A stretch of 64,000 nt of DNA from Candidatus Nealsonbacteria bacterium (lineage in GTDB: Bacteria > Patescibacteriota > Minisyncoccia > Minisyncoccales > PWPS01), in NCBI GenBank assembly GCA_003557645.1, contig PWNV01000014.1:17989-81988 (forward strand), read 5' to 3'. A model generated the notes under the pieces. The model was given only the letters and a program-made list of their open reading frames with translations. It had not been told where the DNA came from and made no database searches. The position numbers and the translations under genes were made by a program. Position 1 is the first letter of the stretch, and every line of letters starts with the position of its first letter. Below are positions 16,202-41,526 of the stretch, in pieces.

Positions 16202-16216
16202 AGCATCTTCTTTACT

Positions 16217-16292
<76 letters not shown>

Positions 16293-19196: not shown

Positions 19197-21440
19197 ATGG
19201 AAGAAGACACAAACATCACACAAGAGGTCCGAACAATGAAAAAAGACCTCGCTGTTGCCCGGGAGGGGGGCGAAGAAAGTGTCGTTCCTTCTCCCAGTTC
19301 TAAAAAATCTCCTCAACCCAGAGATGACGAAGAAAGAAGAAGAGAAGAAGAAGTAATAAGAAACGAAGAAAGAAGGAAGGAAGAGAAAAAGCGCAAAGAG
19401 CGACTAGCTGAAGAAGAAAAAATAAGAGAGATTGAAAAAGAGAAAATTTCAACATGGATAAATGATATTCAAAAATCCAAACAAGGGATTAGAGGCAAGA
19501 TTGCAAAAGAGATAGAGTCTTTAAAGAAGGAAATTGAAAATAAAATTCGCGAAGAGGAGGAAAAGGGTCGTAAACTGGAAGAAATACTACAAAAAAAGGA
19601 GTCGTTTGAGACAAAGGAAAATCTTTTCAAAAAGAGCATTCTTAAGCTAGAAGAAAAAAAAGATGCACTAAAACTAAAAGAAGCGAGTTTTAAAAAGCAA
19701 ATCAAAGAAATAGAGAAGATAAAGAAAGAATCAGAAAAAAAAGAAGATATCATCATAAAAGAAGAAGAGTTAAGCGAGAGAAAAAGAGAAGTAACTCAAA
19801 AAAAATGGGACACAGAAAAAGATCTCATACGAACTAAGAAAACAACTCATGCTATTGACTTGAAAAAACTCTACCTTTCCCTTCAAGTAGGTAGAGAAGA
19901 GAGAGAAGTCGAGAAATTAAAAACAGAAAGAGAAGCTTTGGGTCTTCAGCTTTCTATTCTTGTTCCTCAAAACAAAATTTCTTTTCTAGAAGAAAGGATC
20001 AACCTCTATGATCAAATATTAGGCCTTTTTCAAGCTCGGAAAAAAAGAATAAAGGATAGATTAAGAAAAGTAGTTCAGGCAGATAAGAATATCAAAGAAA
20101 GGTTTGTTGATATAAAGGAAAAGCTTGCACAAACAAGCAGCAACGAAGAATTGGAATCCCTTGAAAACGAGAGATGGAAAATTGAAGAGAAAAAGAGACA
20201 GATTAAAGAAGAGGCTTGGGAGTGGCAAGAAACAATAAAGAAAACAGAAGAAAAAATAAAAATAATTGAAACCAAAAAGAAGTCTGCGGAAGAGAAAACT
20301 CTTTCCCTGCGAAAAGAAATACAGCAAAACGAAAAATCTCTGCAAGAAAAAAGAGCCCTGATAGAGACTCTTCAAAATAAAGAAAAGAGCTTAAGAGAAA
20401 AAGAAGAGGAGGACATCAAAGAAAAGAAACGTCTCATCGTCCTTAAGAGGAGAGAATTTCTCCTAAAAGACCCTGTTTACAGGAAAAAGATTGTTGCAAA
20501 ACGAGTAGATCTTTTAAGCAAGATCTGTAGCGCTATAGAAGAAAAAAATAAAATTAAAGCAGAGCTACGAAGTCTTTTAGAAAAGGAAAGAGAAATTGAA
20601 TCTGAATTAAAAGAAACCCAAAAAAAGGAAGATGAGCTAAAGAAAGAGAAAGAAGAAGTGGAGAGAAGAGAGAGGATAGCAAAAGACCCGCAAGAAGTCA
20701 GAGAAATGGAAGAAAAGAGGTGGAAGATAGGAGAAGAAAGAAGATCTGTAGAAAAAGAGGTTCTAGAAATTCAAGAAAAATTAAGTCCTTTTACAGAGAA
20801 AAGAAAAGAAGCTGAAAAAGAATACGCTGTTCTTTCAGAGAAAAAAACAAAAATAATTAAACAAGAAGCTTCTCTTGCGTCTAAGTTACGAAGATGGATT
20901 AAAGCAGAAGAGCAAAGAAAAGAGATAGAAAAAAGAAGATCTCAGATAAACAGGAAAAAAGAAAATATTTCTAATGAAAAGGAAGAAAAAGAAAAAGGTA
21001 TAGAGGGAGTTGAGAAAAAATTGAACAATATACTAAAAAGGGAGAGTGAAGTAGAAAAGGACGTTCGATGGATAGAAGAAAAAATACAAGCCATGAACAC
21101 CGAATCAAAAGAAAGAAGAAATGAAGTTAAAAAAATGTGGCAGTTAGAAGATAAAAGAAGGGAGATAGAAAAGATGAAATGGGAGCTACAAGAAAAAGTA
21201 GATGAAAGCGGGAAAGAAAAAGAAAAAATTGAACAACAATATCAACTCCTTCTAGATGAAGAAAGTCGCCTGCTCAAGGAGAAAGAAGGCTTTAAAGAGA
21301 AAGAAGCACTCCTATCACTAGAAAAAGAAAAAGAGGAGATAGAGAAGATGATGGAAGAAGAAGACAGCGAAGTTCTTGAGAAAAAATTCGTAGAAATCGC
21401 ACATCAAATGATAAGCGAACTTCAAAAAACGGTCTCTTAA
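19197..21440 (+). CDS. Giant Lys/Glu-rich coiled-coil protein with Trp-containing periodic repeats
   Basis: Repeats such as ENERWKIEEKKRQIKEEAWEWQE, KRWKIGEERRSVEKE, KMWQLEDKRREIEKMKWELQEK; no enzymatic motifs. Confidence 0.6.
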   Translation: MEEDTNITQEVRTMKKDLAVAREGGEESVVPSPSSKKSPQPRDDEERRREEEVIRNEERRKEEKKRKERLAEEEKIREIEKEKISTWINDIQKSKQGIRGKIAKEIESLKKEIENKIREEEEKGRKLEEILQKKESFETKENLFKKSILKLEEKKDALKLKEASFKKQIKEIEKIKKESEKKEDIIIKEEELSERKREVTQKKWDTEKDLIRTKKTTHAIDLKKLYLSLQVGREEREVEKLKTEREALGLQLSILVPQNKISFLEERINLYDQILGLFQARKKRIKDRLRKVVQADKNIKERFVDIKEKLAQTSSNEELESLENERWKIEEKKRQIKEEAWEWQETIKKTEEKIKIIETKKKSAEEKTLSLRKEIQQNEKSLQEKRALIETLQNKEKSLREKEEEDIKEKKRLIVLKRREFLLKDPVYRKKIVAKRVDLLSKICSAIEEKNKIKAELRSLLEKEREIESELKETQKKEDELKKEKEEVERRERIAKDPQEVREMEEKRWKIGEERRSVEKEVLEIQEKLSPFTEKRKEAEKEYAVLSEKKTKIIKQEASLASKLRRWIKAEEQRKEIEKRRSQINRKKENISNEKEEKEKGIEGVEKKLNNILKRESEVEKDVRWIEEKIQAMNTESKERRNEVKKMWQLEDKRREIEKMKWELQEKVDESGKEKEKIEQQYQLLLDEESRLLKEKEGFKEKEALLSLEKEKEEIEKMMEEEDSEVLEKKFVEIAHQMISELQKTVS

Positions 21441-21464: not shown

Positions 21465-24365
21465 ATGCAAAACGATACAAAACCAATCACTGCCGAACTA
21501 GAAGAAGAATTGTCTGTATTAAAAAAACTAGAAGAAAAGCTAGAAGAGTTAAAAGTTAGTCTTGTTGGTGCTGCAGAAAAAAAAGAACAAATCAAAAAGA
21601 GCTTGGACCTTATAAAAGAAAAGGAAAAAGAGATAGAAGAGAGAGAAAGAGAACTTGAGAAAAAAGGAGAGGAAGCACAGAACGAGAAAGAGAAAAGAGA
21701 GGCCGGAGAAGAAAGATGGAAGGTAGAAGATAAGCGCAAAGAAATTGAGAAAGATCGATGGGATTGGGAAAATAAAATTAAAGAGGTAGAAGAGAACATC
21801 TCCTCTCTAGAAAAAGAGAAAGAAGCTACTATCGAAAAAAAGAAGGAGGCAGAAGAAAAGGTTGATCAGCTTCAAAAAAACGCAGAACAGGAGGATGAAG
21901 AAAGTATCAAAACGGCAATAGAAAGAAAGAAAGAGGAAGAGTCCTTGGCTCTTGAAGAAAAGAAAACCTTAGCTGTGAAAAAGGAGAAGGCAAAGGAGGT
22001 TTTAAAAGAAATAAAGGAAAAAGAAAAGGAAATAGAAAGAACCGAAAGAGATCTAGAAGGAAAAGAAGAGGCAGAAAAAGATTTTTCTGAAAAAAAGAAA
22101 CTTAAGGAAAAAAGGTGGGAAGCAGAAGATCAGCGTAAAAAAATAGAAGAAGAAAGATGGAAAATTGAAGAAACTGTCTCCTCTATAAATGAAAAAATTG
22201 AAAAGAAAAATACTAAACTAAGCAGACTAGAAGATGAGATCGAATCACTGCAAAGACAAAAAGACGAAGCAGAGGTAATTGCAGGAATCAAAGAAACGCC
22301 AAAACCAGAGGCTGATCTTGAGAAAAAGGAAAAAGAACCTTTAACCGGAGATCTTGAAGAAAAAATAGTCGAGAAGAAGGAATCTCTCTCTGAAGAAAAA
22401 GAAACTCTTTTTGCAAAAAGAATGGAGCTCTCCGACAAGCTTCGTGAAACAAAGAAAAAAGAAAGAGCGACAGAAAAAGAAAAAATAAAAATTGAGAGAG
22501 AAGAAACAGCCGTAAAAGGAACAAGTAAAGAGAAAGAGATAACTGAGAAAAAATGGGCGGTTGAGGAAGAAAGAAGATCTACAGAACAGATAAGATGGGA
22601 TTTAGAGAAGGAGCTAGGAGATGTTAATAAAAGAATAGAAGAAATCAAGAGAAAAGAGAAAGTTATTAGAAAAAAGGAAGAGGAACTAGCAAAAAGAAGA
22701 GAAGAGAGAGAAAGAGAAAGGGAGATAAGGCAAAGAGAAAGAGAAGTAACTTCTAAACTCCAAGACAAGGATCTCTCTTTAACACAACAAAAGAAGCTCC
22801 AGCTAGAAAAAATGGGTCTCCTAAAAGAAAAGCTAAGTGATCAGTTCTATCGATACAAAGAAGAAAAAAAACTTTTAGAAATTGAAATTGACAAGCTCTC
22901 ACAAAAGGAAAAAGAAAACGAGAGAAAGTTGGAAGAGGCTTATGAAGAAGAAAACTACGCAGAGAAAAAAAAGAATGAGATTGAGGCAAAGGAAAAAGCA
23001 ACACACAATGTAAAAGAAAAAGAAGAAATAGAAAAAAGCAGATGGGAAGCAGAAGAGGAAACGAGAGAAGCTAAAAGAGTTGTCTGGGATATTAAGGAAA
23101 GATTGAACGAAATAAAGAAAAGAAGTCGCAGAGCACACACAAAAAAATGGAAAGTTTCCACCAAGGAAAAGAGAGTTCAAGAAAAATGGCACAGCCTCGC
23201 TCGTAAAGAAGAAAGAGCTAGGGTTTCTCTGGAAAAAGCAAAAATAAAAGAAAAGATTAAATCTATTGAGAGTGAAAGGAGGACTCTTGACCTAGAAATA
23301 GTTAAGACAAAGGAAAGAAGAGATCATTTACAAGAAAAGATCGCTACTGTTATTGAAAAAGAAACTGTTATTGAAAAGAAAAAGAAAGAAATCGAAGAGG
23401 AAGAAACAGCCGCCAAAAACCCTGAAGAAAGAAGGGAGAAAGAAAAAGAGAGATGGAGAGTGGAAGAAAAAAGGAGAGAAATTGAGAAAGAAAAATGGTC
23501 ATTACAAGAAAAGATCAAAACAATAGAAAAAGATCTATACTCTTCTGAGCTGCATTATCAGCAAACGCTAAACAAAGAAGAAAACTTAAAGAAGAAAGAA
23601 TCCTCTCTTTCTAAAAAAGAAAAAGAGCTAATAGCCAAAGAAAGCAAGAGAGAGAAAGCTAAAGAGCTAAAAAGATTGCAGGCAATTAAGGGCAAGATCG
23701 AGGAGAAAAAAGAAAGCTTAATTGACGAAGAAAACCAACTAAAAGATTCTCTTAAAGAAATGAAGGAAAAAGTGAAAGGAATGAAGAAGGTTATGCACGA
23801 TATTGAAGAGGAAGAAGAATTCATCGAAGAACCTGAAGAAAGAAAAAAAGTAGAAGAAAAAAGATGGAAAGCAGAAGAAGATAAGCGCGAAACAGAAAAA
23901 AAGATCTGGGAATTAGAAAACAGATTAGCGGAAATTGAAACGGAGAGAAAGGGCTTTGATCTTATTAAAAAAAGAGAATCAGAAATCCAAGCAGAACTAG
24001 AAAAACTAGAATCTCTTTTAAGAAGAGAGAATGATGCTTTTGAAGAAGATTACACTGACGACCTAGAAGATGAGGAGGAAGCCACAGAAGAAATAGATCA
24101 AAGTTTAAGTAAAGAATCTTTTCGAGAAAGAAAAAAGAGAGAAATCGAAGAGGAAGATAGCGATGAAGAAGAAGATTATGAAGATGAAGAAGAAGATTAT
24201 GAAGATGAAGAAGAGGATGATGAGGAGAGAAAAGACAAAGATGAAGAAGAATATTATGAAGATGATGAAGAAGACGATGAGGAGGATGATGAAAAAACTC
24301 CATCAGAGTCAGAAGAAAAAGAGAAGAAAGATCCTAATATCTCTGACCTAGATTTTAAGTTTTAA
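21465..24365 (+). CDS. Giant Lys/Glu-rich coiled-coil paralog (six about 140-aa-period W repeats) with poly-acidic DYE tail
   Basis: ERWKVEDKRKEIEKDRWDWE, KRWEAEDQRKKIEEERWKIE, KKWAVEEERRSTEQIRWDLE, SRWEAEEETREAKRVVWDIK, ERWRVEEKRREIEKEKWSLQ, KRWKAEEDKRETEKKIWELE; same frame as upstream ORF, separated by one TAA. Confidence 0.6.
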   Translation: MQNDTKPITAELEEELSVLKKLEEKLEELKVSLVGAAEKKEQIKKSLDLIKEKEKEIEERERELEKKGEEAQNEKEKREAGEERWKVEDKRKEIEKDRWDWENKIKEVEENISSLEKEKEATIEKKKEAEEKVDQLQKNAEQEDEESIKTAIERKKEEESLALEEKKTLAVKKEKAKEVLKEIKEKEKEIERTERDLEGKEEAEKDFSEKKKLKEKRWEAEDQRKKIEEERWKIEETVSSINEKIEKKNTKLSRLEDEIESLQRQKDEAEVIAGIKETPKPEADLEKKEKEPLTGDLEEKIVEKKESLSEEKETLFAKRMELSDKLRETKKKERATEKEKIKIEREETAVKGTSKEKEITEKKWAVEEERRSTEQIRWDLEKELGDVNKRIEEIKRKEKVIRKKEEELAKRREEREREREIRQREREVTSKLQDKDLSLTQQKKLQLEKMGLLKEKLSDQFYRYKEEKKLLEIEIDKLSQKEKENERKLEEAYEEENYAEKKKNEIEAKEKATHNVKEKEEIEKSRWEAEEETREAKRVVWDIKERLNEIKKRSRRAHTKKWKVSTKEKRVQEKWHSLARKEERARVSLEKAKIKEKIKSIESERRTLDLEIVKTKERRDHLQEKIATVIEKETVIEKKKKEIEEEETAAKNPEERREKEKERWRVEEKRREIEKEKWSLQEKIKTIEKDLYSSELHYQQTLNKEENLKKKESSLSKKEKELIAKESKREKAKELKRLQAIKGKIEEKKESLIDEENQLKDSLKEMKEKVKGMKKVMHDIEEEEEFIEEPEERKKVEEKRWKAEEDKRETEKKIWELENRLAEIETERKGFDLIKKRESEIQAELEKLESLLRRENDAFEEDYTDDLEDEEEATEEIDQSLSKESFRERKKREIEEEDSDEEEDYEDEEEDYEDEEEDDEERKDKDEEEYYEDDEEDDEEDDEKTPSESEEKEKKDPNISDLDFKF

Positions 24366-26119: not shown

Positions 26120-27124
26120 CTATCTAACTTGTCCTCCAACCGGGATGTGAGAAAAAGGATTCCTTATTCTTCTGGAAAGAATATCAAAGTGAACATGGCA
26201 TCCTGTTGAAAGTCCCGTAGTTCCCATTGTTCCAATTTGCTGTCCTTGATAAACTCTCTCTCCCACTCCAACATGCATTCCTTGTAAGTGTCCATAAAAA
26301 GCAACTACACTTCCATGATTGATCTTGATAAAGTTCCCCGCTGGCCAGGTATTGTAGGCTCTCTCTATTACTACTCCAGATTGCACGGCATAAATCGGGG
26401 TTCCACAGTTGTTAGCAATATCAACTGCATTGTAGTGGTGGGGTCCCTGTGTAAGGATTCCTGTTGCTGGAGGAATAAAGTGCATTGATGGAGTTGGCCT
26501 TGGTACAGTAGTTCTTGGAATTGGCGGCTGTTCCCCTCCTGGAACAATTATTAAGTCTCCTGGATAAATATTCTCAACGTATAGATTATTAAATTTTTCT
26601 ATCTCCTCCTTTTTTGCTTTATGTCTCTCTGCAACTTCAGACAAAGTATCCCCTGCTTCTACATAATACATCACTCCCGTAACAGGGAGGATTGTTAATT
26701 CTTCTCCCGGTTTTATCTTATCTCCCTTTATGTCGTTTGCCCATCTTATCGTGTCTTTGCTAATTCCAAACTTATCGGCTACATTATCAAGGGTATCTCC
26801 TTCTTCAACTTTATAAGAGATTATGCTGTTTCTTTGATCTATCCCGCCTCCTCTACCCATCACTTGAGAAGTTACAAAATAAGGAGTGGAATCAGAGAGA
26901 AGAGTGTTTTCGTGAGTAAATACAATCGGCTTAAAATCATCAAAAGATTCTCCTTGATAAGAAAGAAATATATCAATATCAGAAACAAAGCTCTCCTCTG
27001 AATAATCTTTCCTGTCTATAAAAAAACTTGAATCTGTAAAATGATTTAACGCTAAAAGAGAGAACACAAAAAGAAGGAAAAACTTACTTTTCCCCTTAAT
27101 GGCTACAAATCTACCTTGGCTCAA
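26120..27124 (-). CDS. LysM-domain M23 family peptidoglycan endopeptidase
   Basis: Two LysM repeats (GDTLDNVADKFGISKDTIRWAN; GDTLSEVAERH), M23 motifs HHYNAVD and HVHFD. Confidence 0.85.
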   Translation of the reverse strand: MSQGRFVAIKGKSKFFLLFVFSLLALNHFTDSSFFIDRKDYSEESFVSDIDIFLSYQGESFDDFKPIVFTHENTLLSDSTPYFVTSQVMGRGGGIDQRNSIISYKVEEGDTLDNVADKFGISKDTIRWANDIKGDKIKPGEELTILPVTGVMYYVEAGDTLSEVAERHKAKKEEIEKFNNLYVENIYPGDLIIVPGGEQPPIPRTTVPRPTPSMHFIPPATGILTQGPHHYNAVDIANNCGTPIYAVQSGVVIERAYNTWPAGNFIKINHGSVVAFYGHLQGMHVGVGERVYQGQQIGTMGTTGLSTGCHVHFDILSRRIRNPFSHIPVGGQVR

Positions 27125-27226: not shown

Positions 27227-28072
27227 ATGACCCTAACAAACAAAGACATTCTAAAAGAAGCTCTCGATAATTACTCCATAACTCCCAAAAAATCACTGGG
27301 ACAAAACTTCGTTATAGATAAGAATGTTATCAAAAAAATTTGTGACTGTGCCGATCTTTCAAAAGAAGATCAAGTCCTTGAAATCGGTCCGGGAACAGGA
27401 GCCCTTACCCTTTCTTTAGCGGAAAAAGTAACTCACGTCACCGCAATAGAAAAAGATAGGAGATTGATGCCCTTACTTCTTGACCTAACAAAAGAGACCA
27501 AGAACATAAGTGTCGTACATAGTGATATCTTGGATTTTTCCATTCCTTTCAAAAAGTATAAAGTTATAGCAAATCTCCCTTACTACGTTACTTCTCCTAT
27601 AATAAAAAAATTCTTAGAAGAATATTTTCCTCCTGAGATGCTTGTTCTCACTGTTCAAAGAGAAGTTGCAGAGAGAATAATAGCGAAACCTCCTAAAATG
27701 AGCCTCTTGTCTGTCTCCGTACAATTTTATGCCGATGCCAAGATAATATCTCACATTTCAAAAAACTCTTTCTGGCCACCTCCTTCTATCGAGTCTTCTA
27801 TTATAAAAATTACTCCAAAGAAAAATTCCTTTGATAAAGCTTTTAAGGAAGATTTTTTCCGCATCCTTAGAAAAGGATTTTCTCATCCCCGAAAACAAAT
27901 ACTAACCAATTTCCAGCTTGACAGAGAAAAGAAAAGTGGGGTAGACTTTACAAAACGAGAGATAATCTGTAACCTTATTAAAAAAAGTAACGTTGATGCA
28001 AGAAAGAGGCCCGAAAGCCTAAACATAGATCAATGGAAATCCCTAACTAAAAATCTTTCAAAAATCATCTAA
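27227..28072 (+). CDS. rsmA: 16S rRNA (adenine1518/1519-N6)-dimethyltransferase
   Basis: SLGQNFVIDKNVI, LEIGPGTGALT SAM motif, NLPYYVTSPI. Confidence 0.85.
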   Translation: MTLTNKDILKEALDNYSITPKKSLGQNFVIDKNVIKKICDCADLSKEDQVLEIGPGTGALTLSLAEKVTHVTAIEKDRRLMPLLLDLTKETKNISVVHSDILDFSIPFKKYKVIANLPYYVTSPIIKKFLEEYFPPEMLVLTVQREVAERIIAKPPKMSLLSVSVQFYADAKIISHISKNSFWPPPSIESSIIKITPKKNSFDKAFKEDFFRILRKGFSHPRKQILTNFQLDREKKSGVDFTKREIICNLIKKSNVDARKRPESLNIDQWKSLTKNLSKII

Positions 28073-28083
28073 TATAAAGCTTC

Positions 28084-31000
28084 ATGAAAAAACTTTTTCT
28101 CCTTTCTGCTCTCGTTTGTTTTCTCGCTCTTTCTTTTAACTTCGTGCTGGCAGACGACCCCCCTAAATGTACTCCCAAATGTGAGTGCATTTATGCTGAA
28201 ACTGAGCCCGAGCATGCAGGATGTGGTTTTCCAGAGTGTGGAGGAGTGGTAATAGAGTACTGGTATGATACAAGATGTGGCACGGGTTTTTGTTATGAAG
28301 TTGAAAACGAGTCCAACGGACCCTGGGAAGACGCTAGGCCTGAATGTAATTGGGGTTGGTCTTGTCATCCGGGATGCTTAGATCTTCCCACACCTGACTA
28401 TTATTGGGCTGATCCGGGAGAAACAATTAAACAAAAAGATTATCCTATCGCCTCTCAGTACCCATACGATGAAACTCCAAACGAGAGAGTATATCTTCCT
28501 GTTAAGCTTGGTTGGGACCATATAAGAGGATGGATGCACCCAACAGGACCTAAGTCTTATCGTATACAAATAGACGGGACAACCAGAGATTATCCCCCTC
28601 CTTACTCCTATCCTCCCGCTGACCCGTCCGACCCTGATCCTCCTGGCGGCCCAGGACCATCCCCTCCCGCAGAGGGATTTCTTACTTGGCCAGTTGATAA
28701 TATTTTTAATGTTAGTGATTACTACGCTCAAGACAGACGGGCAGCATCTTTTCCTTATCTCACAGACTATCACACTGGAATTGATTTTTTTGGTGGCAAC
28801 GTCCCGATATATGCAGCGGGCAACGGAGAAGTAGTAAGAGTAAACAGAAGCCTCCAGGCAGGGATGGGAAGATGGGTCTTGATCAAGCACCCCGGCATAA
28901 CCTCCACCGATGGAAGAACTGTCCTTACACGCTATCTCCACTTAAAGAGCATTGATCCCAATCTCAACGAAGGAGATATGGTCACTGCAGGACAACAAAT
29001 AGGAATAATGGGAGGAACAGGAAGTAGTGAAAATAGTTACGCCATACATCTTCACTGGGATGTTTGTTTTGGAAGTTGTAGGTACAGTAACTGGCCTAAT
29101 GAATTTGATGACCCTCTTAATTACATTACTCGTGATCAAAGGTGGGCAGACTTTATAGAAGCAAGAAGAAGTCACCACAATCACGGAAGAGAAAATTACT
29201 ATTGGCCGGGAACTGTGCCTATTTATATAAGTAATAAAGACACCGACCCCTTCGATCTTTACAACACCCCTCCTCCAACCACTTCTCTTAACAGCTCATC
29301 TTCTTCTTGTTCTTTGGTGACAAACGACTCTCTTCCCTCTAACGAAAATAATACCTCCTTTTTATCAGAGCTATCCTCTTCTTTCGTTTTGACATCAAAC
29401 TCTTTAGAAATAACTCTTGAAGAGTGTCTCCGCACCAATCGATTTATTGCTGATAAGTGTCTTCTACGGTCAGACTATAATCACAACTGGAGAGTGCAGG
29501 GCTGTTGTGACACAGAGTGTAACTCGTGTCACCCCACATGCTGGTCAGAATATGATTTTATAACAGACGAAGCTCCTGAACCTATTGAGCCATATGATCC
29601 TAGCTGGGCTGGAGATTACGGAATGGCAGGAGGTCATCATAATCCACTAGGCTTCCAAGACGCAAACTCAAAATGGTGTGATCCAGAAAACGAAGACGAT
29701 TATAAGGGTTATCTCCTTCTTGCTTTTAAGGAAATAAACGGAAATATGGTCTGTCATCCTGATCGTCTTCGTCCCGATGGCGTTTGTCGTCCTATTCTTG
29801 TCCGAGATGACAATCCTGTTCCTATCCACAGAGGACCTCCTCCCACAGAGATTATTAATATAAGAGAAGACCTTTTCAATGAAATAGGAGAAATATTTGC
29901 CTGGAGGGTGGCTGCTTGTGAGGATCATAAAATGGAAGACTGCTCTGACTATAGCCAGAAATGGAGACTTATTGTTGGAGACACAATAAAAAACCCTCAT
30001 GATTTTCAACCCGCAAACGACCCTGAAGGAGAAACTCCTATTGGAATTTATCCAGACGCTACTTTTAGATGGAACTGGCCCTTTGGAGCACACTCTTTTT
30101 GGTTCCAGCTTGCCGTAGATAACGAAAATCAAGACGTCATAATAGAAGAACTCCTAACCACTAACAGCTTTACCGTTCCAGCAGCAACTTTGGGAATTGA
30201 AAATCGCTTTATCTGGAGAGTTAAATCTTGCTACGATGAAGATGGAGAGAACTGCCTTGAAGAGTGGACAGAAAACATTCACTTTACTACTACGGGAAGA
30301 CCTCCTAACCTAGAGGAGACAGCCGTTCCTCCCGACGGAAGTGAGGAAGTGACTATTCCCCTTACCATAGAGTGGGAATCTGTCCCTGGAGCACAGTCAT
30401 ACATCTTTAGAATAGATGGAGAAGAGAGGCGTGTTTCTTCAGAAAAAATTCATCTTAATTATCCACAACTTAAAACAGGGACTGAGTACTCATGGACCGT
30501 AAAAACTTGTGCTGATCCGGGGGGCTCTGCTTTTTGTGGAGGATTTTGGTCTCCTGAAGTAAAATTTACAACTCTAGTTCTTCAGCCCCCTACAAATCCT
30601 AGCCCTGAAGACAATTCCACTCTTTTCACAGACACAAGAAGCATTAACGCTTCTTGGAGCAAGGCCAGAGGAGCAAACTATTACGAGTATGAGATTAGCT
30701 ACCCAGGAGGAGAAACAGAAAGTGATATTATTTCTGGAACATCCTTTTATGTCAACCTTTTTGACTTGGGAACATATAATTGGAGAGTTCGGTCTTGTCT
30801 TGACAGTAACTGCGAAGACAGCAGCGCTTTTTCCAACTGGAGCTTCACCTACGAAGAAATAGAAGCAGATGGAGTGGGTCTTGTTCCTTGTGGAAGGGCA
30901 TACGACAGCCCTAGCACTCCATGGAACGAGAGAGAGCCTTGTCAGTTGAAACATCTATTTATATTGTTTAAAATATTGACTGATTTTGTCCTTTGGAACC

Positions 31001-31224
31001 TTTTCCCAGTTGCTCTTGTTTTAATGGTTTTAACTACTGGTGCTTTGTTTTCGTTCGCTTCACCTTTGGGACCAAGCGTACTAGCAAGAGTAAAACTGTT
31101 ATGGAAAGGAGTAGGAATTGGTTTTGTTGTTCTTTTCTTTGGTTGGATTATTTTAACAATAGGTCTGTCAATGATAGGATACGACGCAGGTATCTACGGT
31201 CCGTGGTGGCAAATCAACTTTTAA
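28084..31224 (+). CDS. Giant secreted multidomain protein: Cys-rich N-domain, Pro-rich linker, M23 peptidase, four FN3-like WRVxxC repeats, C-terminal VirB2-like pilin/membrane domain
   Basis: Signal peptide; DYHTGIDFF...HLHWD M23 motifs; repeats FAWRVAACED / FIWRVKSCYD / YSWTVKTCAD / YNWRVRSCLD; C-terminal GLVPCG...CQLKHLF plus two TM helices matching ORF 15782..16201. Confidence 0.75.
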   Translation: MKKLFLLSALVCFLALSFNFVLADDPPKCTPKCECIYAETEPEHAGCGFPECGGVVIEYWYDTRCGTGFCYEVENESNGPWEDARPECNWGWSCHPGCLDLPTPDYYWADPGETIKQKDYPIASQYPYDETPNERVYLPVKLGWDHIRGWMHPTGPKSYRIQIDGTTRDYPPPYSYPPADPSDPDPPGGPGPSPPAEGFLTWPVDNIFNVSDYYAQDRRAASFPYLTDYHTGIDFFGGNVPIYAAGNGEVVRVNRSLQAGMGRWVLIKHPGITSTDGRTVLTRYLHLKSIDPNLNEGDMVTAGQQIGIMGGTGSSENSYAIHLHWDVCFGSCRYSNWPNEFDDPLNYITRDQRWADFIEARRSHHNHGRENYYWPGTVPIYISNKDTDPFDLYNTPPPTTSLNSSSSSCSLVTNDSLPSNENNTSFLSELSSSFVLTSNSLEITLEECLRTNRFIADKCLLRSDYNHNWRVQGCCDTECNSCHPTCWSEYDFITDEAPEPIEPYDPSWAGDYGMAGGHHNPLGFQDANSKWCDPENEDDYKGYLLLAFKEINGNMVCHPDRLRPDGVCRPILVRDDNPVPIHRGPPPTEIINIREDLFNEIGEIFAWRVAACEDHKMEDCSDYSQKWRLIVGDTIKNPHDFQPANDPEGETPIGIYPDATFRWNWPFGAHSFWFQLAVDNENQDVIIEELLTTNSFTVPAATLGIENRFIWRVKSCYDEDGENCLEEWTENIHFTTTGRPPNLEETAVPPDGSEEVTIPLTIEWESVPGAQSYIFRIDGEERRVSSEKIHLNYPQLKTGTEYSWTVKTCADPGGSAFCGGFWSPEVKFTTLVLQPPTNPSPEDNSTLFTDTRSINASWSKARGANYYEYEISYPGGETESDIISGTSFYVNLFDLGTYNWRVRSCLDSNCEDSSAFSNWSFTYEEIEADGVGLVPCGRAYDSPSTPWNEREPCQLKHLFILFKILTDFVLWNLFPVALVLMVLTTGALFSFASPLGPSVLARVKLLWKGVGIGFVVLFFGWIILTIGLSMIGYDAGIYGPWWQINF

Positions 31225-31233: not shown

Positions 31234-31920
31234 ATGTCTGATAAAAAAATAGTTATTGTAAGTTTCTTAATGATAGCTTTTCTGGTTCTCTCTACATATA
31301 TCCACAGTCAAAGAACTAGAGATATTCAAGAGAACGGCCATCCCGTGCTGCCAAGCAAAGAGTTCTCTTCTTCCGATCATTCTCTCCCCAAGTTAGAAGA
31401 CATTATCAGTGAAAGATCTGGAGAAAATCAAGGAGAGAGACTAAGAGAGCCCGAAGAAATCGAGTATAAAGAATTTATAGATCAAGATAACAAAATAACG
31501 GTAGAGTACCCTTCACACTGGAAAGTTACAGAAGATGCAACTCCCTTAGGGCAAGATAATATAGATTTCCTTTTTGTTGCTTTCTTAGAAGGATCCTACG
31601 AAGTAAGGGCTGGAATGACCATTTTGAGAGGACAAAACTTAGATGAAGACAGTAATTTGCTTGAAAAAACAGAAAGTACTTTTGCCGATGCCGCTAGCCG
31701 AGAAATTTTAGAAGAAAAAGAAACCGAAAACGGGAAGATATTTAAGACAAAATATAAAGATTCATTAGGAGAGATTCGTGGCAAAGAAAAGGTTATGCAG
31801 GCTAATGATAGTAGTTACATGGTCTCCGTTTTTGTGATGTCTCACTCCTGGGAAGATTTCTTACCTCAAACAGATCATATAATTAATTCTGCCACAATTA
31901 GAACAGAAAACGACTTATGA
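31234..31920 (+). CDS. Hypothetical bitopic protein (N-terminal TM plus periplasmic/extracellular domain), VirB8-like topology
   Basis: Single TM (IVIVSFLMIAFLVLSTYI) then about 200-aa soluble domain; size and topology as VirB8 but no sequence motif recognised. Confidence 0.35.
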   Translation: MSDKKIVIVSFLMIAFLVLSTYIHSQRTRDIQENGHPVLPSKEFSSSDHSLPKLEDIISERSGENQGERLREPEEIEYKEFIDQDNKITVEYPSHWKVTEDATPLGQDNIDFLFVAFLEGSYEVRAGMTILRGQNLDEDSNLLEKTESTFADAASREILEEKETENGKIFKTKYKDSLGEIRGKEKVMQANDSSYMVSVFVMSHSWEDFLPQTDHIINSATIRTENDL

Positions 31921-33035
31921 TAAAAAAACCCACCTTACTAAAAATAACAAAGCTTGCACTTGTCTTTCTATTTTTTTCTTTTCTTCCTTTTACTTTTTCT
32001 TTTGCCGGCGAAGATCCGGCTGAAACAGAAGTTATCTGGCCCACCTCTCCTGTAGGAACAGAGTTTACTCGAGACATGCCATTGCACGAGCTTATCGCTT
32101 ATTTTTATGAATGGGGTATTGTTATCGGAATACTGGCAGTGTTTGGTATTTTGGTTTTCGCCGGATTTCAATACACAATTTCTGCTGGAAAGCCTGCCAT
32201 GATGACAGACGCCCTAAGTAGAATTCAAGCTGCAATAATTGGTCTTGTTCTTCTTTTATCTTCTTGGCTAATATTAAGCATTATTAACCCTGAATTGGTA
32301 AAAATTTCTCCTATCACATTTAGTATTTCTGATGAAATACGTGGATTAAATCTTGACGTTGATGATCTCTACGGAGCACCAGTCGACGCTGTAGAGTTCT
32401 ATCCTAAAAAGAATTATGAAGGAGATATTATCTCCACATTATATACTCCAAAAAGATCAACATATGAAATAAGAATAGAACAAGTTCATTATTTAAGTCA
32501 GGGTGGAACAGTTGCTGCTCCAGGAGAAGGAGAAGCAATTCCTCCAGAATCAGCAAGAGGATTTACAGCTATTCCTCCTTCCGAGATGATACAGTGGGAA
32601 CAAGGAATAGATCTTGATTATCAAAGATACAGTCATCCTCCTCTAGATGGAGTACTCGCAGGAACAGGATCATATCTCTCCTTTGGACAAAAAATGATTC
32701 CAGATCCCGAAGGTCTTTATAAAGAAGGAGGATCTTCTTTAGTTGATCTTTACGAAGAAACAACCAGGGGTTTTTGGGACTGGCTTACGGGAACGAAAAT
32801 TAATTGTGAAAGCAAATTAAGTCGAGGAATAATTTCCACGGTTGATGTTAGAGAAGGAATTTTTGGTTTTGACAGAGAAATAAACTGCATGATAATTGAA
32901 CGAAGACACGTGCCTTTAGATGATGCCTTGTTTGGTAGTCCTGGTGAAAACGCGGTAAGAGTTTCTCCCGTTTTTTGCGATGGAGGTGATCCGTGTTTCT
33001 ACAATCCTCCGGAAGACGAAATTCCAGAAGATTAA
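31917..33035 (+). CDS. VirB2/TrbC-like pilin domain protein with about 240-aa C-terminal extracellular extension
   Basis: Signal peptide, LHELIAYFYEWGIVIGILAVFGILVFAGFQYTISAGKP...IQAAIIGLVLLLSSWLILSIINP two-helix pilin pattern. Confidence 0.55.
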   Translation: MIKKPTLLKITKLALVFLFFSFLPFTFSFAGEDPAETEVIWPTSPVGTEFTRDMPLHELIAYFYEWGIVIGILAVFGILVFAGFQYTISAGKPAMMTDALSRIQAAIIGLVLLLSSWLILSIINPELVKISPITFSISDEIRGLNLDVDDLYGAPVDAVEFYPKKNYEGDIISTLYTPKRSTYEIRIEQVHYLSQGGTVAAPGEGEAIPPESARGFTAIPPSEMIQWEQGIDLDYQRYSHPPLDGVLAGTGSYLSFGQKMIPDPEGLYKEGGSSLVDLYEETTRGFWDWLTGTKINCESKLSRGIISTVDVREGIFGFDREINCMIIERRHVPLDDALFGSPGENAVRVSPVFCDGGDPCFYNPPEDEIPED

Positions 33036-33065: not shown

Positions 33066-35306
33066 ATGAATTTTTTAAAGGAAAAGTGTAAATCTAAACT
33101 GAGACACGTGTTCACTCTACTATTTTTTCTCTTCTTCCTTTTTATTCCGGAGATAACAGAGGGGTTTGCTTTTAGTCTTGGAGAAAAGCAGCTTGCAGGT
33201 CTTTCTGAAGTAGTGGGTCCAGTTTTGGCTCTTGGTATCTTTCTTTTTGCCTTCCTTATTTTTTCCTACGGCCTTTTAGTGGTAGCAACCGAATATTTGC
33301 TAGCAATTATCATCTCTACTCCCGATGCTCTTACGCTGAGTGCAGAAAAAGCTCCTTTTGTAGATATAGGATGGCAGTTTATTCTAGGAATATCCAACAT
33401 GCTCCTTATTCTTGCTTTTATTGTTATTGCTATCTCCGTTATATTAAGATTCGAAAATCTTGGCTTTAAAAAGGCATTTCCTAGACTAATCGGTGTTGCC
33501 CTTCTTATAAACTTCTCACTGGTGTTTGTAGGGATGGGAATTGATATCTCGAATGTTTTTTTTAGCACTATTGAAAATGAGCTTATTCTAGAGATGGATC
33601 CTGAGTGCTCTTGGCAGGCCGCAGGTCTGGGAGATTGTCCAGAAGACACCAGCCCAAGTGCCGAAGGGAATTGTCTAGGACCAAATCCTGGAGGATCTCT
33701 TTGTTGCTGTTATGAGGCAGAAACCACCACCCTTATATCCGAATCAATGGAGATGCTCTTCTCTGGGGCAGCTCAAAGAATAATTAATTTTGGCGCTATT
33801 CTCGCTGGTTTTGCAGCGGCAATGTTAATACCTTATGTATCTGTAGGGGTGCAGTTTGCAGTTATTATAGCTGGTGTAGTCTGGTTCTCCGATATTATGG
33901 CAATGCTTACTCAGGGACTAATAATGTTTCTTCTTGCAGGAGCTTTCTTTCTCTTTTTTATTATTTTCCTTGTACGAATCTTTGTTATTCAAATACTTGC
34001 TATCGTCGCTCCCCTTGCCTTTATTTGTTTGATTTTCCCAGGAACACAGTTATATAAATATTTTGAAATGTGGGTAAGAAGTCTTCTTCAGTGGCTTTTT
34101 GCTGGTATTGCCTTCCTTTTTCTGCTCATCCTTGGCTTTAATATGGTTGGTATGGTAGATGGTCTCGTAGGGGTTATCGGAGATTTAGAAGTAGAAGGAG
34201 AAAATACCTGGGTTGTTGCAATAAAGAACGTCTTCTTAGACAGTGGTTTTGTTTACTATATCGTCCTTCTTGTTTATTTTGTAACTATTCTTTTTTTCGG
34301 TAAAAAATTCATTCCAGCTGGAGTAGATGCAATGATTAGTCAAGCTAAGTCTGTTAGCTCTTCGGTTACCGGAATAGCAGGAAAAGCATTTAATCGTAGC
34401 CTTGTACCAAAGAGAGCGCAAGATCAAGCCAATGTTCCCGAAGGAGCTGAGAACATGGCAAATTGGATGAGAAAGAGTAGAGTGCCTGGAGCAAGACTAG
34501 CAGCCCCTACTGTTGCTAGATGGGCTAAGAGAAGAAAGGACGAGGCGGAAAAAGAAGCAAAAGAGGTATCAAGAGACTTTCGTCGTATGGATCAAGTAAG
34601 AAGAGCGGGCGGAACCCAGCAAGAATTAAAGGCGTTATCTTCTACAGGAACTAAGAGACAACGCCACGGGGCAGATTTAGCTTGGGAGGCTAAGATAGGT
34701 GAATTAGAAAAGAAGAAAAAAGAAGTAGAAGAAAGTAGAGGAAAAGCTCCATCAAGATCTGAGGTTGAAAAAGATCTTCCAATAAGAACAGGTGAATCTA
34801 CAACAGACTGGAAGATAAGAGTCGGTAAGGAGCTAGACAGAAGAGAAAGGCAACACAACGCCCCTGTAAGAAGAGTTGAAAAAGAGATAGAATCTTGGAA
34901 TCGAATGGCCCCTCATTTGGGAGCTCCTAATGAAGATGATATTGCAAAAAAGATTCCAAAGGTGGAAGGAGAATCTAGAACGCAAAGAAAACAGAAAATA
35001 CAAAAAGCAATGGACGAAGCCTTAAACAAGCATAGAAGTAAAGTAGGAAAAACCGTTAATGATATGTCTCCAAGTGAACAAGCAAGCATGTTGTCTTCTG
35101 CCTATGATAATAAGACGGTTGTTACTCACATGACAAAAAAGAAGGCTAATATTGATGCGCTGGTGGAGAAGAAAAATTATAAGAATCTAAGAAGAACAAT
35201 CAAAACTTTCAATAAGCTTCATCCTAAAGTACGACAAAAGAGAAGAAAAGTCTTCGATACAATAACAGCCACTCCCGCGTGGAAAGAAGCTAAAAGAATA
35301 AAATAG
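33066..35306 (+). CDS. VirB6/TrbL/TcpH-like polytopic membrane protein with Cys-rich loop and long basic C-terminal tail
   Basis: Signal/TM1 plus at least 7 further TM helices, extracellular loop CSWQAAGLGDCPEDTSPSAEGNCLGPNPGGSLCCC, about 300-aa Lys/Arg-rich cytoplasmic tail. Confidence 0.55.
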   Translation: MNFLKEKCKSKLRHVFTLLFFLFFLFIPEITEGFAFSLGEKQLAGLSEVVGPVLALGIFLFAFLIFSYGLLVVATEYLLAIIISTPDALTLSAEKAPFVDIGWQFILGISNMLLILAFIVIAISVILRFENLGFKKAFPRLIGVALLINFSLVFVGMGIDISNVFFSTIENELILEMDPECSWQAAGLGDCPEDTSPSAEGNCLGPNPGGSLCCCYEAETTTLISESMEMLFSGAAQRIINFGAILAGFAAAMLIPYVSVGVQFAVIIAGVVWFSDIMAMLTQGLIMFLLAGAFFLFFIIFLVRIFVIQILAIVAPLAFICLIFPGTQLYKYFEMWVRSLLQWLFAGIAFLFLLILGFNMVGMVDGLVGVIGDLEVEGENTWVVAIKNVFLDSGFVYYIVLLVYFVTILFFGKKFIPAGVDAMISQAKSVSSSVTGIAGKAFNRSLVPKRAQDQANVPEGAENMANWMRKSRVPGARLAAPTVARWAKRRKDEAEKEAKEVSRDFRRMDQVRRAGGTQQELKALSSTGTKRQRHGADLAWEAKIGELEKKKKEVEESRGKAPSRSEVEKDLPIRTGESTTDWKIRVGKELDRRERQHNAPVRRVEKEIESWNRMAPHLGAPNEDDIAKKIPKVEGESRTQRKQKIQKAMDEALNKHRSKVGKTVNDMSPSEQASMLSSAYDNKTVVTHMTKKKANIDALVEKKNYKNLRRTIKTFNKLHPKVRQKRRKVFDTITATPAWKEAKRIK

Positions 35307-37150: not shown

Positions 37151-37567
37151 ATGAGATTCAAAGTTCCAAGAAATATTGAGCATGAAGCAAAAGTAGTGGG
37201 GCCCGCTACTTTTCAGCAAATTCTTCCTATTGGAGGGGCCTCTTTTATTATCTTTATTCTTTACCTTTTACTTAGAGAAAAAAGCATGTTCCTCTTCTTT
37301 TTTCTCTCTACTATCGTTGCTTCCGGCGGCTTCGCTTTGTCTTTTTTAAAAATCAATCAGATGCCCTTATCCCAATACATCAAAAATTACATTTCTTTCT
37401 CCCTTGCTCCGCGAGAGTATATCTGGAAGAAAAAGGAGAAAACTATTAATATATCTACAGAAAGAAAAGCCACGGTAGTAAAAGAAAAAATAGAGAAAGA
37501 AGAGGAAAACAAGCCAAGAAAAGAAAGTCAAATAAATAGAATCAGCTCAAAAATTGATTCACTTTAA
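37151..37567 (+). CDS. PrgI/VirB3-like small membrane protein
   Basis: MRFKVPRNIEHEAKVVGPATFQQ N-terminus then two hydrophobic helices; located immediately upstream of VirB4 as VirB3/PrgI genes are. Confidence 0.5.
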   Translation: MRFKVPRNIEHEAKVVGPATFQQILPIGGASFIIFILYLLLREKSMFLFFFLSTIVASGGFALSFLKINQMPLSQYIKNYISFSLAPREYIWKKKEKTINISTERKATVVKEKIEKEEENKPRKESQINRISSKIDSL

Positions 37568-37569
37568 AT

Positions 37570-38199
37570 ATGCCCTTAAGCACTCAAGAATTACTTGAAA
37601 TTAAGCAGATTAGAGAAGGTGTTCTCGTCCTCAAAAACAACCAGCTACGAGGAATTTTGATGGTTTCGTCAATAAATTTTGTTTTAAAATCTGAAGAAGA
37701 GCAAAAAGCAACTATTTATCATTTTCAATCCTTCTTGAATTCCTTGGATTTCTACTTACAGATAGTTATTCAGTCTAGAAGAACAAATATTAGGGGATAT
37801 ATTGATAAAATCAAGAAAATAGAAAAAGAACACACTAATGAGCTTTTACAGTTTCAAATAGCGGGTTATATAAAGTTCTTGGAAGACTTTGTAAGAAAGG
37901 AAGATGTTTATAGTAAAAACTTTTTTGTAATCATTCCTTATGGTGTTGGAGAGACTAAAACATCAACACGTGATGTTATGGCTGCTAGAAAAGGAACCCT
38001 TACTGATGAGATTTTTGAAAGGGCAAGAGATCAGCTATATCAAAGAATGGAGTTTGCCGCTTTGGGTCTTCGTAGGTGTGGTCTCCACTCCGCTCCATTA
38101 ACTTCTTCTGAAATTATAGAATTACTTTGGAGTATGCATCATCCAAAACAAGCAGAAAAGGGATATTTCCCAGAAATACCTGATGAACTTATTATGTAA
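37570..38199 (+). CDS. VirB4/TrsE/PrgJ-like ATPase, N-terminal fragment (split gene, part 1)
   Basis: REGVLVLKNNQLRGILMVSSINFVLKSEEEQKATIYHFQSFLNSLDFYLQIVI matches VirB4 N-terminal region; ends 17 nt inside next ORF in different frame. Confidence 0.6.
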   Translation: MPLSTQELLEIKQIREGVLVLKNNQLRGILMVSSINFVLKSEEEQKATIYHFQSFLNSLDFYLQIVIQSRRTNIRGYIDKIKKIEKEHTNELLQFQIAGYIKFLEDFVRKEDVYSKNFFVIIPYGVGETKTSTRDVMAARKGTLTDEIFERARDQLYQRMEFAALGLRRCGLHSAPLTSSEIIELLWSMHHPKQAEKGYFPEIPDELIM

Positions 38200-40021: not shown

Positions 40022-40470
40022 TTTTTCTTTTTTATAACTACTCTCCTTTGAGAACCTTCGTCTACACTCTCTGTTATTATATCTTCTCTTTTCGCAAGGG
40101 TTAAATGAATAATTCTTCTCTCGTAAGCAGATAAGGAAGGAAATTTTTTTCCTACTCCAGTAAGAGAAACCTCATCAGCGGTTTTATTTGCAATTTCTTC
40201 TAGTTGTTCTCCTTTCCTTTTCTTATAATCATTAATATCTAGATTAATAAATAGTGGTTCAGAGCTGTTTTTTCTTGCTATGATCTTTAAAAGCCTTTCA
40301 ATCTCAACCAAGGATTGACCCCTCTCTCCTATAAAAGCTTGAGGGCTTTTTATCCTTGCATAAACATTAAGATTTTTATCGTCATTAGAAAAAAACTCCA
40401 CCTTAATGTCTGAATCAATTAAATAGAAAAATTTAATTATAATATCTTTGATTTCTTGCTTTGTCTTCAT
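40018..40470 (-). CDS. jag: Jag/KhpB RNA-binding protein (KH plus R3H)
   Basis: R3H motif ERRIIHLTL, position downstream of yidC. Confidence 0.7.
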   Translation of the reverse strand: MKTKQEIKDIIIKFFYLIDSDIKVEFFSNDDKNLNVYARIKSPQAFIGERGQSLVEIERLLKIIARKNSSEPLFINLDINDYKKRKGEQLEEIANKTADEVSLTGVGKKFPSLSAYERRIIHLTLAKREDIITESVDEGSQRRVVIKKKN

Positions 40471-41174
40471 ACTTCTTCACTTTTTTTCACCATATAATGT
40501 TGTGATATAGAAAAAATAATTGTTATTATCCAATAAAGTCCAACTGCAGAGGGAAGATTAAGAAGTATTATAAAAGTAAACCCTGGTAAGAAAATCATCA
40601 TGTGTGATTGCATCATTTTTGCCATATCCTTACTATCTTCTTTTCCTTTATTCTCCATCGTCATTTTCATTTGCAAATACTGTCCTCCTCCCGCTAAAAC
40701 AGCGAGAATAACATTTGCTGTTGACAGGTCTATAATTCCAAGGAATGTAGTGTCTACGCTCTCTGGAGAGGGAATAAAGTTGTAAAGATGAGTCATCTCT
40801 CCTGTTTCCAATCCTCTTCGAAAAATCTGAAACAAGGAAATAAGTATGGGTAGTTGAATAAAAAGAGGAAAAAGGCCAGAGAAAGGGTTAACTTTGGCTT
40901 TTTTATAAGCCTCCATTATCTTTCTTGCCTGAGTTTCTTTGTCATCCTTATATTTCTCTTGTAACTTCTTTATCTCAGGTTGAATCTTTTGTATTTCTTT
41001 TTGAGATCTTGTAGCCTTCAGTCCTAAGGGGTAAAGAATACTCTTAATAAGAACTGTGACTAGAACAACGGCAATTCCTAGGTCAGCAAAAGGAACTACG
41101 TTATAGAAAAAAATTAGCAAATTAAAGAGAGGCTGGTATATTGTTATGTAAAAAAAATCGGCTATAAAGCTCAT
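40467..41174 (-). CDS. yidC: Membrane protein insertase YidC (short, Gram-positive type)
   Basis: Multi-TM Oxa1 family pattern, rnpA-yidC-jag synteny. Confidence 0.8.
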   Translation of the reverse strand: MSFIADFFYITIYQPLFNLLIFFYNVVPFADLGIAVVLVTVLIKSILYPLGLKATRSQKEIQKIQPEIKKLQEKYKDDKETQARKIMEAYKKAKVNPFSGLFPLFIQLPILISLFQIFRRGLETGEMTHLYNFIPSPESVDTTFLGIIDLSTANVILAVLAGGGQYLQMKMTMENKGKEDSKDMAKMMQSHMMIFLPGFTFIILLNLPSAVGLYWIITIIFSISQHYMVKKSEEV

Positions 41175-41178
41175 TGTT

Positions 41179-41523
41179 TTAACTCTTAATCACCTTCGCT
41201 TTTTGTAATATATCCACTACTCCTTCCTTGATCTCTTTATAACTTCTTTTATCTAAGTCTTTCTTACTGATAACAATAACATCAAACCCTTTTTCAATTT
41301 GTTTAAAAACACTTCTTACTGCTTCTCTTTTCTTTCTTTTTAAGGTATTCCTTACTACTGCTTTTCTATATATTTTTACTGGAACAACAAAAGCGAAACG
41401 GGAGAAATCTAAATTATTTTCTTTTACTTTTATTAAGTAAGTCTGATTTTCAAACTTCTTTCCGTTTCGAAAAATATCATCAAACTCCTTCCTTTTTTTA
41501 ATTCTATATTTAAAAGAAAGCAT
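41179..41523 (-). CDS. rnpA: Ribonuclease P protein component
   Basis: Basic small protein, RNR-like motif region, synteny rpmH-rnpA. Confidence 0.75.
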   Translation of the reverse strand: MLSFKYRIKKRKEFDDIFRNGKKFENQTYLIKVKENNLDFSRFAFVVPVKIYRKAVVRNTLKRKKREAVRSVFKQIEKGFDVIVISKKDLDKRSYKEIKEGVVDILQKAKVIKS

Positions 41524-41526
41524 TAA

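Follow-up and report, generated by a model that had tools for sequence, protein, structure and literature searches.

What could a cell gain from joining a peptidoglycan hydrolase covalently to a pilin, and where would such a protein act? This question is raised by a gene of Candidatus Nealsonbacteria bacterium, an ultra-small member of the Patescibacteria, located at positions 28084..31224 of the 64,000-nucleotide stretch analysed here (contig PWNV01000014.1 of assembly GCA_003557645.1, positions 17,989 to 81,988), which we call the window; all coordinates refer to it and to its + strand unless a gene is marked (-). An original prediction, made from the letters of the DNA alone, had described the product as a secreted fusion of an M23 hydrolase, FN3-like repeats and a pilin domain. 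The product is a surface protein whose first FN3 domain, of five, harbours an intact M23 peptidase and whose last part is a pilin module. It is a rare M23-bearing variant of a large, apparently undescribed family, and public sources hold no name for the protein or its relatives. By profile comparison the C-terminal module belongs to the pilin family of the type IV secretion systems (T4SSs) of Patescibacteria, and the gene lies first in a conserved T4SS-like locus near dnaA. We propose, with moderate confidence, that the protein is a modular VirB2-like giant pilin of a Patescibacteria T4SS-like machine, displaying a tethered M23 peptidase toward an external envelope.

Architecture of the protein and its nested peptidase

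The gene is real as predicted: the open reading frame (ORF) at 28084..31224 starts with ATG and encodes 1046 amino acids (aa), and the signal peptide, Cys-rich module and Pro-rich linker that had been listed are all present. A Sec-type signal peptide (aa 1-23, 28084..28152) was recognised by eye from its MKK n-region and hydrophobic core (hydropathy window aa 1-25), with cleavage predicted from sequence and hydropathy after VLA (MKKLFLLSALVCFLALSFNFVLA|DD). The Cys-rich head that follows (aa 24-135, 28153..28488), delimited by Cys count and family alignment, would form the distal end of the molecule. It contains 10 Cys within aa 29-98, with C52, C65, C94 and C98 at least 90% conserved across 30 family members. 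It was found by phmmer in 13 of the 150 best relatives, and AlphaFold2 (AF2) models it with low confidence, the predicted local distance difference test score (pLDDT) being below 50 over much of the region.

The repeats, numbered r0 to r4 from the N-terminus, begin with one that is split. Its first half (aa 136-168, LPVKLGW...SYRIQIDG, 28489..28587), contiguous with the second in the relatives P0033, P0064 and P0036, is followed by a Pro-rich linker of low pLDDT (aa 169-197, 28588..28674), by the M23 (LytM/lysostaphin-type) zinc metallopeptidase domain (aa 198-345, 28675..29118, pLDDT 80-95) and by a helical and Ser/Asn-rich low-complexity linker, again of low pLDDT (aa 346-442, 29119..29409), the two linkers being the N- and C-terminal tethers of the insert. 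The second half of r0 (aa 443-492, 29410..29559), carrying a WRVQGCC...C...C motif, is modelled as beta strands (pLDDT 79-88). Repeat r1 (aa 493-632, 29560..29979) contains an internal elaboration of about 40 aa and aligns by hhalign with r0, r2, r3 and r4 at 96-98%. Repeat r2 (aa 633-737, 29980..30294) aligns with r3 at 99.8% (E=9e-28) and has Foldseek matches to tandem FN3 domains; r3 (aa 738-831, 30295..30576) and r4 (aa 832-925, 30577..30858) are delimited by hhalign, AF2 and Foldseek, r3 with an additional weak Pfam match to Ig_Rha78A_N at aa 782-830. The full-length AF2 model has a mean pLDDT of 71.4, is confident over the M23 domain and over the all-beta region aa 443-925, and falls below 50 over aa 169-229 and aa 352-440.

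The original prediction had counted four FN3-like repeats of about 100 aa. Their FN3-like character is upheld by the predicted fold, and their number is five. The motif W-x-V-x-x-C occurs at aa 469, 607, 711, 804 and 900, that is five times, against about 0.06 occurrences expected by chance according to our estimate from residue frequencies. Self-BLAST of the protein returned no internal repeat match; yet when profiles of r0 to r4, taken from an alignment of 30 family members, were compared by hhalign, each proved homologous to every other (96-99.8%, E from 1e-9 to 1e-28), with negative controls below 1%. In the AF2 model aa 443-925 reach a pLDDT of 80-93, and the best Foldseek matches are multi-FN3 fragments (6mfa, E=3.7e-14; 3t1w; contactins, cytokine receptors and fibronectin). 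Pfam gives no PF00041 match on the window protein and places Ig_Rha78A_N below threshold (16.3 bits against 27.4); the latter model is matched by 16 of the 30 relatives at E<=0.001, the best at 7.8e-9. What had been taken for a separate second Cys-rich region turned out to be the second half of the split r0 together with r1. The same FN3 type recurs in 8-17 copies in four giant proteins of 1803-3283 aa (P0050, P0157, P0163 and P0170), which have neither the pilin module nor WxVxxC; the repeat is thus used in other proteins too, and these giants are probably of a surface-layer type.

The position of the peptidase becomes apparent by comparison with relatives that have no M23. In these the first repeat runs uninterrupted (LPVKLxW...SYRIEIE...NxFxAD-CLL...HxWRVQACC), whereas in the window protein and in P0032 about 275 aa separate SYRIQIDG from TLEECLRTNRFIAD. 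These residues comprise the Pro-rich linker, the M23 domain, a short helical segment and the Ser/Asn-rich linker, the last not being present in members without M23. Between Y159 and F454 typical members have about 20 aa, the window protein 295 aa and the M23 carriers 289-328 aa. Spacing is constant through r1-r4 and the pilin module across the family, including the stretch from the last FN3 to the module. Other long members carry 143-520 extra residues one loop earlier than the M23 site. From the alignments, the M23 domain with its two predicted disordered tethers is placed in a loop of r0, the most membrane-distal FN3 domain. An arrangement of M23 as a bead on a string is ruled out by the contiguous r0 of the relatives and by the landmark spacing.

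The peptidase itself looks catalytically complete and is predicted to be active. It matches PF01551 over aa 229-327 (60.4 bits against a cutoff of 28.7, E=2e-16), and in a search of solved structures aa 198-328 align with ShyA (6ue4) at E=4.8e-8, the best value for an M23 structure in the PDB. The M23 domain and its HxxxD and HxH motifs, both part of the original prediction, could thus be checked against Pfam and ShyA, taking HxxxD and the second His of HxH as zinc ligands and the His of YxHL and the first His of HxH as catalytic. H230-x3-D234 (H230-TGI-D234), YLH286L and H322-L-H324 all fall on the catalytic motifs of ShyA; with all motifs intact the domain appears active and not of the degenerate activator type. 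The three motifs are kept in the M23 inserts of P0032, P0120, P0042 and P0063, and P0034 has HLD.

The C-terminal module and the pilins of Patescibacteria

The C-terminal module (aa 926-1046, 30859..31224) is delimited by BLASTP, hhalign and an AF2 hairpin, and consists of a GLVPCG...C loop (C936, C953), a helix at 955-991, a short loop, a helix at 997-1030 and the tail GIYGPWWQINF. The window also encodes a stand-alone GLVPCG pilin of 139 aa (15782..16201), a candidate major subunit and paralogue of the fusion C-terminus, which matches PF18895 (T4SS_pilin; 25.5 bits, E=1.4e-5, just below the 26.6-bit cutoff) and TrbC (E=0.058). The homology predicted between the two is confirmed: the C-terminal 144 aa of the fusion are 33% identical to this ORF over 116 aa (BLASTP E=3e-7), GLVPCG and CQL-HLF being common to both. 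The stand-alone gene sits between tRNA-Arg(tcg) and tRNA-Lys(ctt), within 15645..16292, and a homologous pilin is found 8-9 kb upstream of the fusion gene in loci L007, L008, L010, L012 and L019.

A two-sequence profile retrieved 29 relatives, nearly all of 129-193 aa with PF18895, 2 of the 29 being fragments with the repeat motif ahead of GLVPCGR. A fusion-type profile aligned with 22 stand-alone pilins at 99.8% (hhalign, E=4.8e-30, 105 columns), and these stand-alone pilins match PF18895 in 22 of 22 cases and TrbC/VirB2 in 7 of 22. As isolated modules, 18 of 30 match PF18895, including at least 11 of 23 of the fusion type. Against a VirB2/TrbC reference profile made from eight annotated genes of MPF_T plasmids, the stand-alone pilins of the candidate phyla radiation (CPR) align at 90.8% (E=1.2e-6, both helices), so that the values for the two steps, from the C-terminus to ORF 15782-type pilins and from these to VirB2/TrbC, are 99.8% and 90.8%. 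A mixed profile including fusion modules gives 74.7%, and a fusion-only profile of 110 sequences 32.8% (E=4.6e-4, in the same register and over both helices), with reversed or column-shuffled controls at no more than 1.2%. AF2, supplied with a 30-sequence alignment, folds the module into a hairpin whose two long helices span H30-70 and H73-105 (module numbering; pLDDT 85.6). Both are hydrophobic by hydropathy, and the basic residues R1002, K1004 and K1008 follow the turn. No sequence or fold match of the module to solved conjugative pilins was obtained, the fold searches being non-specific because the hairpin is so simple a fold.

In the stand-alone pilins GLVPCG comes directly after the AxA site of the signal peptide (...AxA|GLVPCG), and the second Cys of CxxC and a C-terminal Cys are present or absent together; the fusion type lacks both, and in the window protein about 900 aa lie between signal peptide and GLVPCG. 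The position of the motif in the small pilins, together with the terminal processing and cyclisation of VirB2/TrbC pilins, would be in line with a fusion that is merely transient, a precursor that, cut at or just before GLVPCG, would yield the head-FN3-M23 part as a soluble exoenzyme and the rest as a small mature pilin. However, the residues ahead of the motif in the fusions (EADGVG, GSKETG, EIKKGG, PPPGFG and others) include neither AxA nor a hydrophobic segment, and thus no recognisable signal peptidase I site, and no dedicated protease is evident in the locus. We consider such a precursor very unlikely, and the suggestion that GLVPCG marks a processing site found no support.

A conserved T4SS-like locus and a family with exchangeable inserts

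The T4SS setting assumed in the original prediction is borne out by the genes downstream of the fusion. A scan of species-representative genomes yielded 30 loci, mostly labelled Candidatus Nealsonbacteria, Paceibacterota or Minisyncoccales, in which tblastn with the window neighbours recovers the gene order dksA, an M23+LysM gene (-), ksgA, the FN3-pilin gene and then T4SS genes, the last present in about 20 of the 30 (Nealsonbacteria/Paceibacteria metagenome-assembled genomes, MAGs), where the order of PrgI/VirB3, VirB4 and VirB6-like genes is conserved. In the window the fusion gene is followed by a small secreted protein (31234..31920) and by a second modular pilin (31917..33035) with a signal peptide, PF18895 at aa 64-123 (31.1 bits, above cutoff) and a C-terminal extension of about 250 aa; this second protein has the opposite polarity to the fusion, bears 4 Cys in its extension and lies directly downstream in about 20 loci. 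Next comes a polytopic membrane protein with several hydrophobic segments and a long hydrophilic C-terminal tail (33066..35306), conserved in position; it has no Pfam match, and the label VirB6-like is one of position and topology only. On the same strand, 6-10 kb downstream of the fusion gene, are a PrgI/VirB3-like protein (37151..37567; PF12666, E=1.2e-10) and a VirB4-type ATPase in two ORFs of 209 and 612 aa (37570..40021; TraG P-loop E=7.5e-27, AAA_10, TraC_F_IV). The two VirB4 ORFs (37570..38199 and 38183..40021) overlap by 17 nt in different frames and are conserved separately, at 50-85% identity, in every related locus, for which reason VirB4 looks like a genuine split gene rather than the product of a sequencing frameshift.

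The cluster is followed by jag, yidC and rnpA (-) and then by dnaA and dnaN (+), at 40018..44488, these names being assigned by sequence and gene order without a Pfam scan; it therefore sits at the presumed replication origin. The dnaA vicinity, the VirB2-like pilins and the usual absence of VirB1 match the T4SSs reported from Patescibacteria (PMC12102498). Such systems are widespread, essential in one species tested and without an assigned function (PMC10633639, PMC11665869, PMC12857230), and they possess essential VirB2-like pilins, unexpected in a monoderm, mostly without VirB1 (PMC12102498, PMC12857230, PMC10633639, PMC11665869).

Several features of the window stand beside this locus. The G+C content of the gene region (28000..31000) is 0.42-0.46, against 0.34-0.40 in the surroundings, which is probably compositional, the protein being rich in Pro, Gly, Cys and Trp, and not a sign of recent transfer. 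Upstream, 19197..21440 and 21465..24365 encode Glu/Lys-rich proteins of 747 and 966 aa with 0-1 Cys; they have no transmembrane segment and no Pfam match, and are 53-61% identical to counterparts in L001. Among the 19 tRNA genes of the window, arranged in several clusters, ARAGORN identified a tRNA-Ile with anticodon TAT (56651..56725, -), which is uncommon in bacteria. Loci L003, L006, L009, L011 and others come from MAGs labelled 'uncultured Candidatus Saccharibacteria' or 'Gammaproteobacteria' but have a Nealsonbacteria-type gene order, which suggests that those records are taxonomically mislabelled.

The family extends far beyond the locus. An exhaustive HMMER search with aa 335-1046 as query, counted in cluster representatives, returned 1737 at E<=1e-3, 584 at E<=1e-10 and 214 at E<=1e-30; with so many relatives the protein is not an isolated case of a VirB1-like partner joined to a pilin. 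Domain content was counted in the best 150 relatives, and in almost all of them the alignment extends to the C-terminal end of both the query and the relative itself. Nearly all share one plan of signal peptide, Cys-rich head, about five FN3 domains and C-terminal pilin; typical members have about 800 aa, about five WxVxxC and the C-terminus GIFGxWWxIxF. By phmmer the pilin module is found in 146 of the 150, r3 and r4 in 147-150, r1 in 100 and M23 in 3, the M23 carriers rising to 5 after iterative search. The covalent M23-FN3-pilin fusion that had been predicted is real, but a hydrolase-pilin fusion of this kind is not unique. Among the 30 loci, the FN3-pilin protein contains M23 only in the window and in L001, whose full-length orthologue is 47% identical. 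In 30 members with long N-terminal regions Pfam detects M23 in 5, Peptidase_C39_2 in 2, a GH5 cellulase in 1 and C70 in 1, besides an Ig-like model in 16 and T4SS_pilin directly in 4; the C39-like peptidase or GH5 cellulase occupies the same r0 region as M23 does here. As judged from these sequences, head, FN3 stalk and pilin module are the constant parts and the insert in the first FN3 is the variable one.

The distribution of M23 also bears on a different role, in which the fused enzyme would be an analogue of VirB1, PrgK or TcpG, held by the pilin module beside the machine and cutting the producer's own peptidoglycan at assembly. Its M23 domain is complete by motifs and encoded within the T4SS locus, as this role would predict, and the Gram-positive T4SS hydrolase PrgK also has a LytM/M23-type domain. 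Furthermore, most Patescibacteria genomes with VirB2-like pilins have no recognisable VirB1 (PMC12102498). However, M23 is confined to 5 of the 150 best relatives and to 1 of the 30 reference loci, although the rest of the T4SS locus is conserved, and the GH5 cellulase and C39/C70 peptidases of others are not enzymes of murein-sacculus remodelling. The M23 domain is placed in the FN3 farthest from the membrane anchor. In addition, a separate secreted M23+2xLysM protein is encoded two genes upstream (26120..27124, -; PF01551 E=2.9e-23, LysM E=8.8e-20), and about 18 loci have such a gene upstream of the FN3-pilin gene; its conservation nearby in most loci makes the fused M23 unlikely as a general wall-opening enzyme. 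We regard an own-wall function as quite unlikely. The first zinc motif of the M23+LysM protein reads HHYNAVD, not a clean HxxxD, and it may be an atypical or regulatory M23; the M23 inserts of the family show no specific kinship with it.

Proposed mechanism and comparison with known systems

In the display mechanism that we propose, the protein would be exported by Sec and its hairpin would lie in the membrane N-out/C-out with the basic loop on the cytoplasmic side, much as in a VirB2 pilin not yet assembled, a topology suggested by the Sec signal and by the positive charges that follow the turn. The stalk of five FN3 domains, about 15-20 nm long by textbook FN3 dimensions, would project the head and the tethered M23 past the producer's own wall. 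The pilin module would recruit the protein to the T4SS platform, where it may stay at the base or enter the filament in low copy, the distal end being the most plausible position if it is incorporated. In VirB2 pili the solvent reaches both termini of the subunit, and the basic loop points into the lumen (bioRxiv 10.1101/2024.03.04.583355), so that an N-terminal extension would point away from the filament; decorating every subunit seems sterically impossible at a pilus rise of about 13 Å, which makes a low-copy role at base or tip more plausible. There the M23 may cut peptide cross-links of an external envelope, of a partner cell or of debris, for contact, penetration or scavenging. Its place in the most distal FN3, the disordered tethers and the non-murein hydrolases of relatives make an external target more likely than the producer's own wall, and the presence of other hydrolases at the same site suggests that the scaffold is a general display platform, with M23 as the cargo of this lineage. 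For one cultivated Nealsonbacteria member, attachment to Methanothrix and growth on cell lysate have been reported (bioRxiv 10.1101/2022.04.20.488981), which would fit attack on a host envelope and scavenging alike.

The same hairpin could serve as membrane anchor only, of a wall-spanning surface stalk that never enters a filament, its pilin ancestry being accidental and its function comparable to that of the wall-spanning adhesins or enzymes known from monoderms. Several observations speak for this and weigh against the pilin proposal: an ectodomain of this size would be hard to fit into a helical pilus; of the Cys of stand-alone pilins, the second one of CxxC and the one at the C-terminus are missing from the fusion type; the window module is too diverged for the Pfam pilin models, giving by itself no Pfam match at E<=0.1, T4SS_pilin and TrbC included, so that its link to the pilins runs through profiles; and Gram-positive T4SSs normally have surface adhesins, not pili (PMC12102498). 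Nevertheless, the extracellular loop GLVPCG...TPWNERExCQxKH and the tail GIFGxWWxIxF, both dispensable for anchoring, are strongly conserved, the gene is invariably first in the T4SS-like locus, and the last FN3 and the module are always the same distance apart. We consider an anchor without a filament somewhat unlikely. A bolder extension of the display mechanism, tentative and rather unlikely as it stands, is that the members of the family are modular VirB2 pilins, tip-forming or otherwise of low copy number, which replace the missing VirB5 adhesin and arm the filament with exchangeable hydrolases (M23, C39-like, GH5). If true, the T4SS-like machine would be an enzyme-tipped probe that breaches or grazes a partner envelope, the first concrete mechanism for the system.

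What applies to the whole family matters more than this one fusion. Across a large branch (Nealsonbacteria/Paceibacteria) the first gene of the locus codes for a giant, pilin-like and conserved protein, variable only in the enzyme-bearing distal insert; this suggests that extracellular, contact-dependent degradation belongs to what the system does. It adds context to the report that a VirB1 homologue is missing from most such genomes. Testable reagents that follow from it are the M23 domain in soluble form, the FN3 stalk, against which antibodies could be raised, and the pilin module as now defined.

The closest known proteins are the VirB2-like pilins of Patescibacteria (PF18895; the arrays of Southlakia epibionticum and TM7x), with which the C-terminal 120 aa of the fusion share the GLVPCG...C loop, the helices, the basic turn and the aromatic tail; the T4SSs of this group also share VirB3, VirB4 and VirB6-like genes near dnaA (PMC12102498). 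Those pilins, however, have about 130-190 aa, with the core right after the signal peptide, whereas here about 900 aa of head, five FN3 domains and M23 intervene; the fusion lacks two of the four Cys conserved in them, and the window module falls below Pfam thresholds. With the diderm pilins VirB2/TrbC/TraA (PF04956) the module has in common the helix-loop-helix hairpin and the basic loop; the profile alignment with them reaches 32.8% for the fusion-only profile compared with 90.8% for the stand-alone CPR relatives, and no VirB2 with a large folded N-terminal extension was found in searchable literature. The T4SS wall hydrolases VirB1, PrgK of pCF10, TraG of pIP501 and TcpG of pCW3 likewise place a membrane-tethered domain of peptidoglycan-hydrolase type in a T4SS locus, but they are dedicated conserved parts with SLT, CHAP, NlpC or glucosaminidase domains and an N-terminal anchor; the M23 described here is rare, swappable and membrane-distal on an FN3 stalk, with a pilin hairpin as C-terminal anchor. 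VirB5-type tip proteins and extended VirB6 resemble the fusion in the role proposed for it, low-copy, distal or surface-exposed and in contact with the target (PMC12857230), this likeness being one of inferred function, with no kinship in sequence or fold.

Modular pilins are known from type IV pili (T4P), where PilB and PilC of Streptococcus sanguinis fuse a pilin module to a functional globular module for display on the filament. The display principle is the same, which makes them the nearest parallel in that respect, but the filament is unrelated, and T4P pilins have a class III signal peptide, a prepilin peptidase and C-terminal modules, whereas the window protein has no T4P-type leader, an ordinary Sec signal peptide and a C-terminal hydrophobic hairpin. 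Searchable literature holds no description of modular T4SS pilins, nor of a pilin-FN3 stalk with an insertion hot-spot as first gene of the locus. The parts, that is M23, FN3 arrays and VirB2-like pilins of Patescibacteria, are known; their combination was not found in that literature, and the fusion is the first example found there of a T4SS pilin module covalently joined to folded domains.

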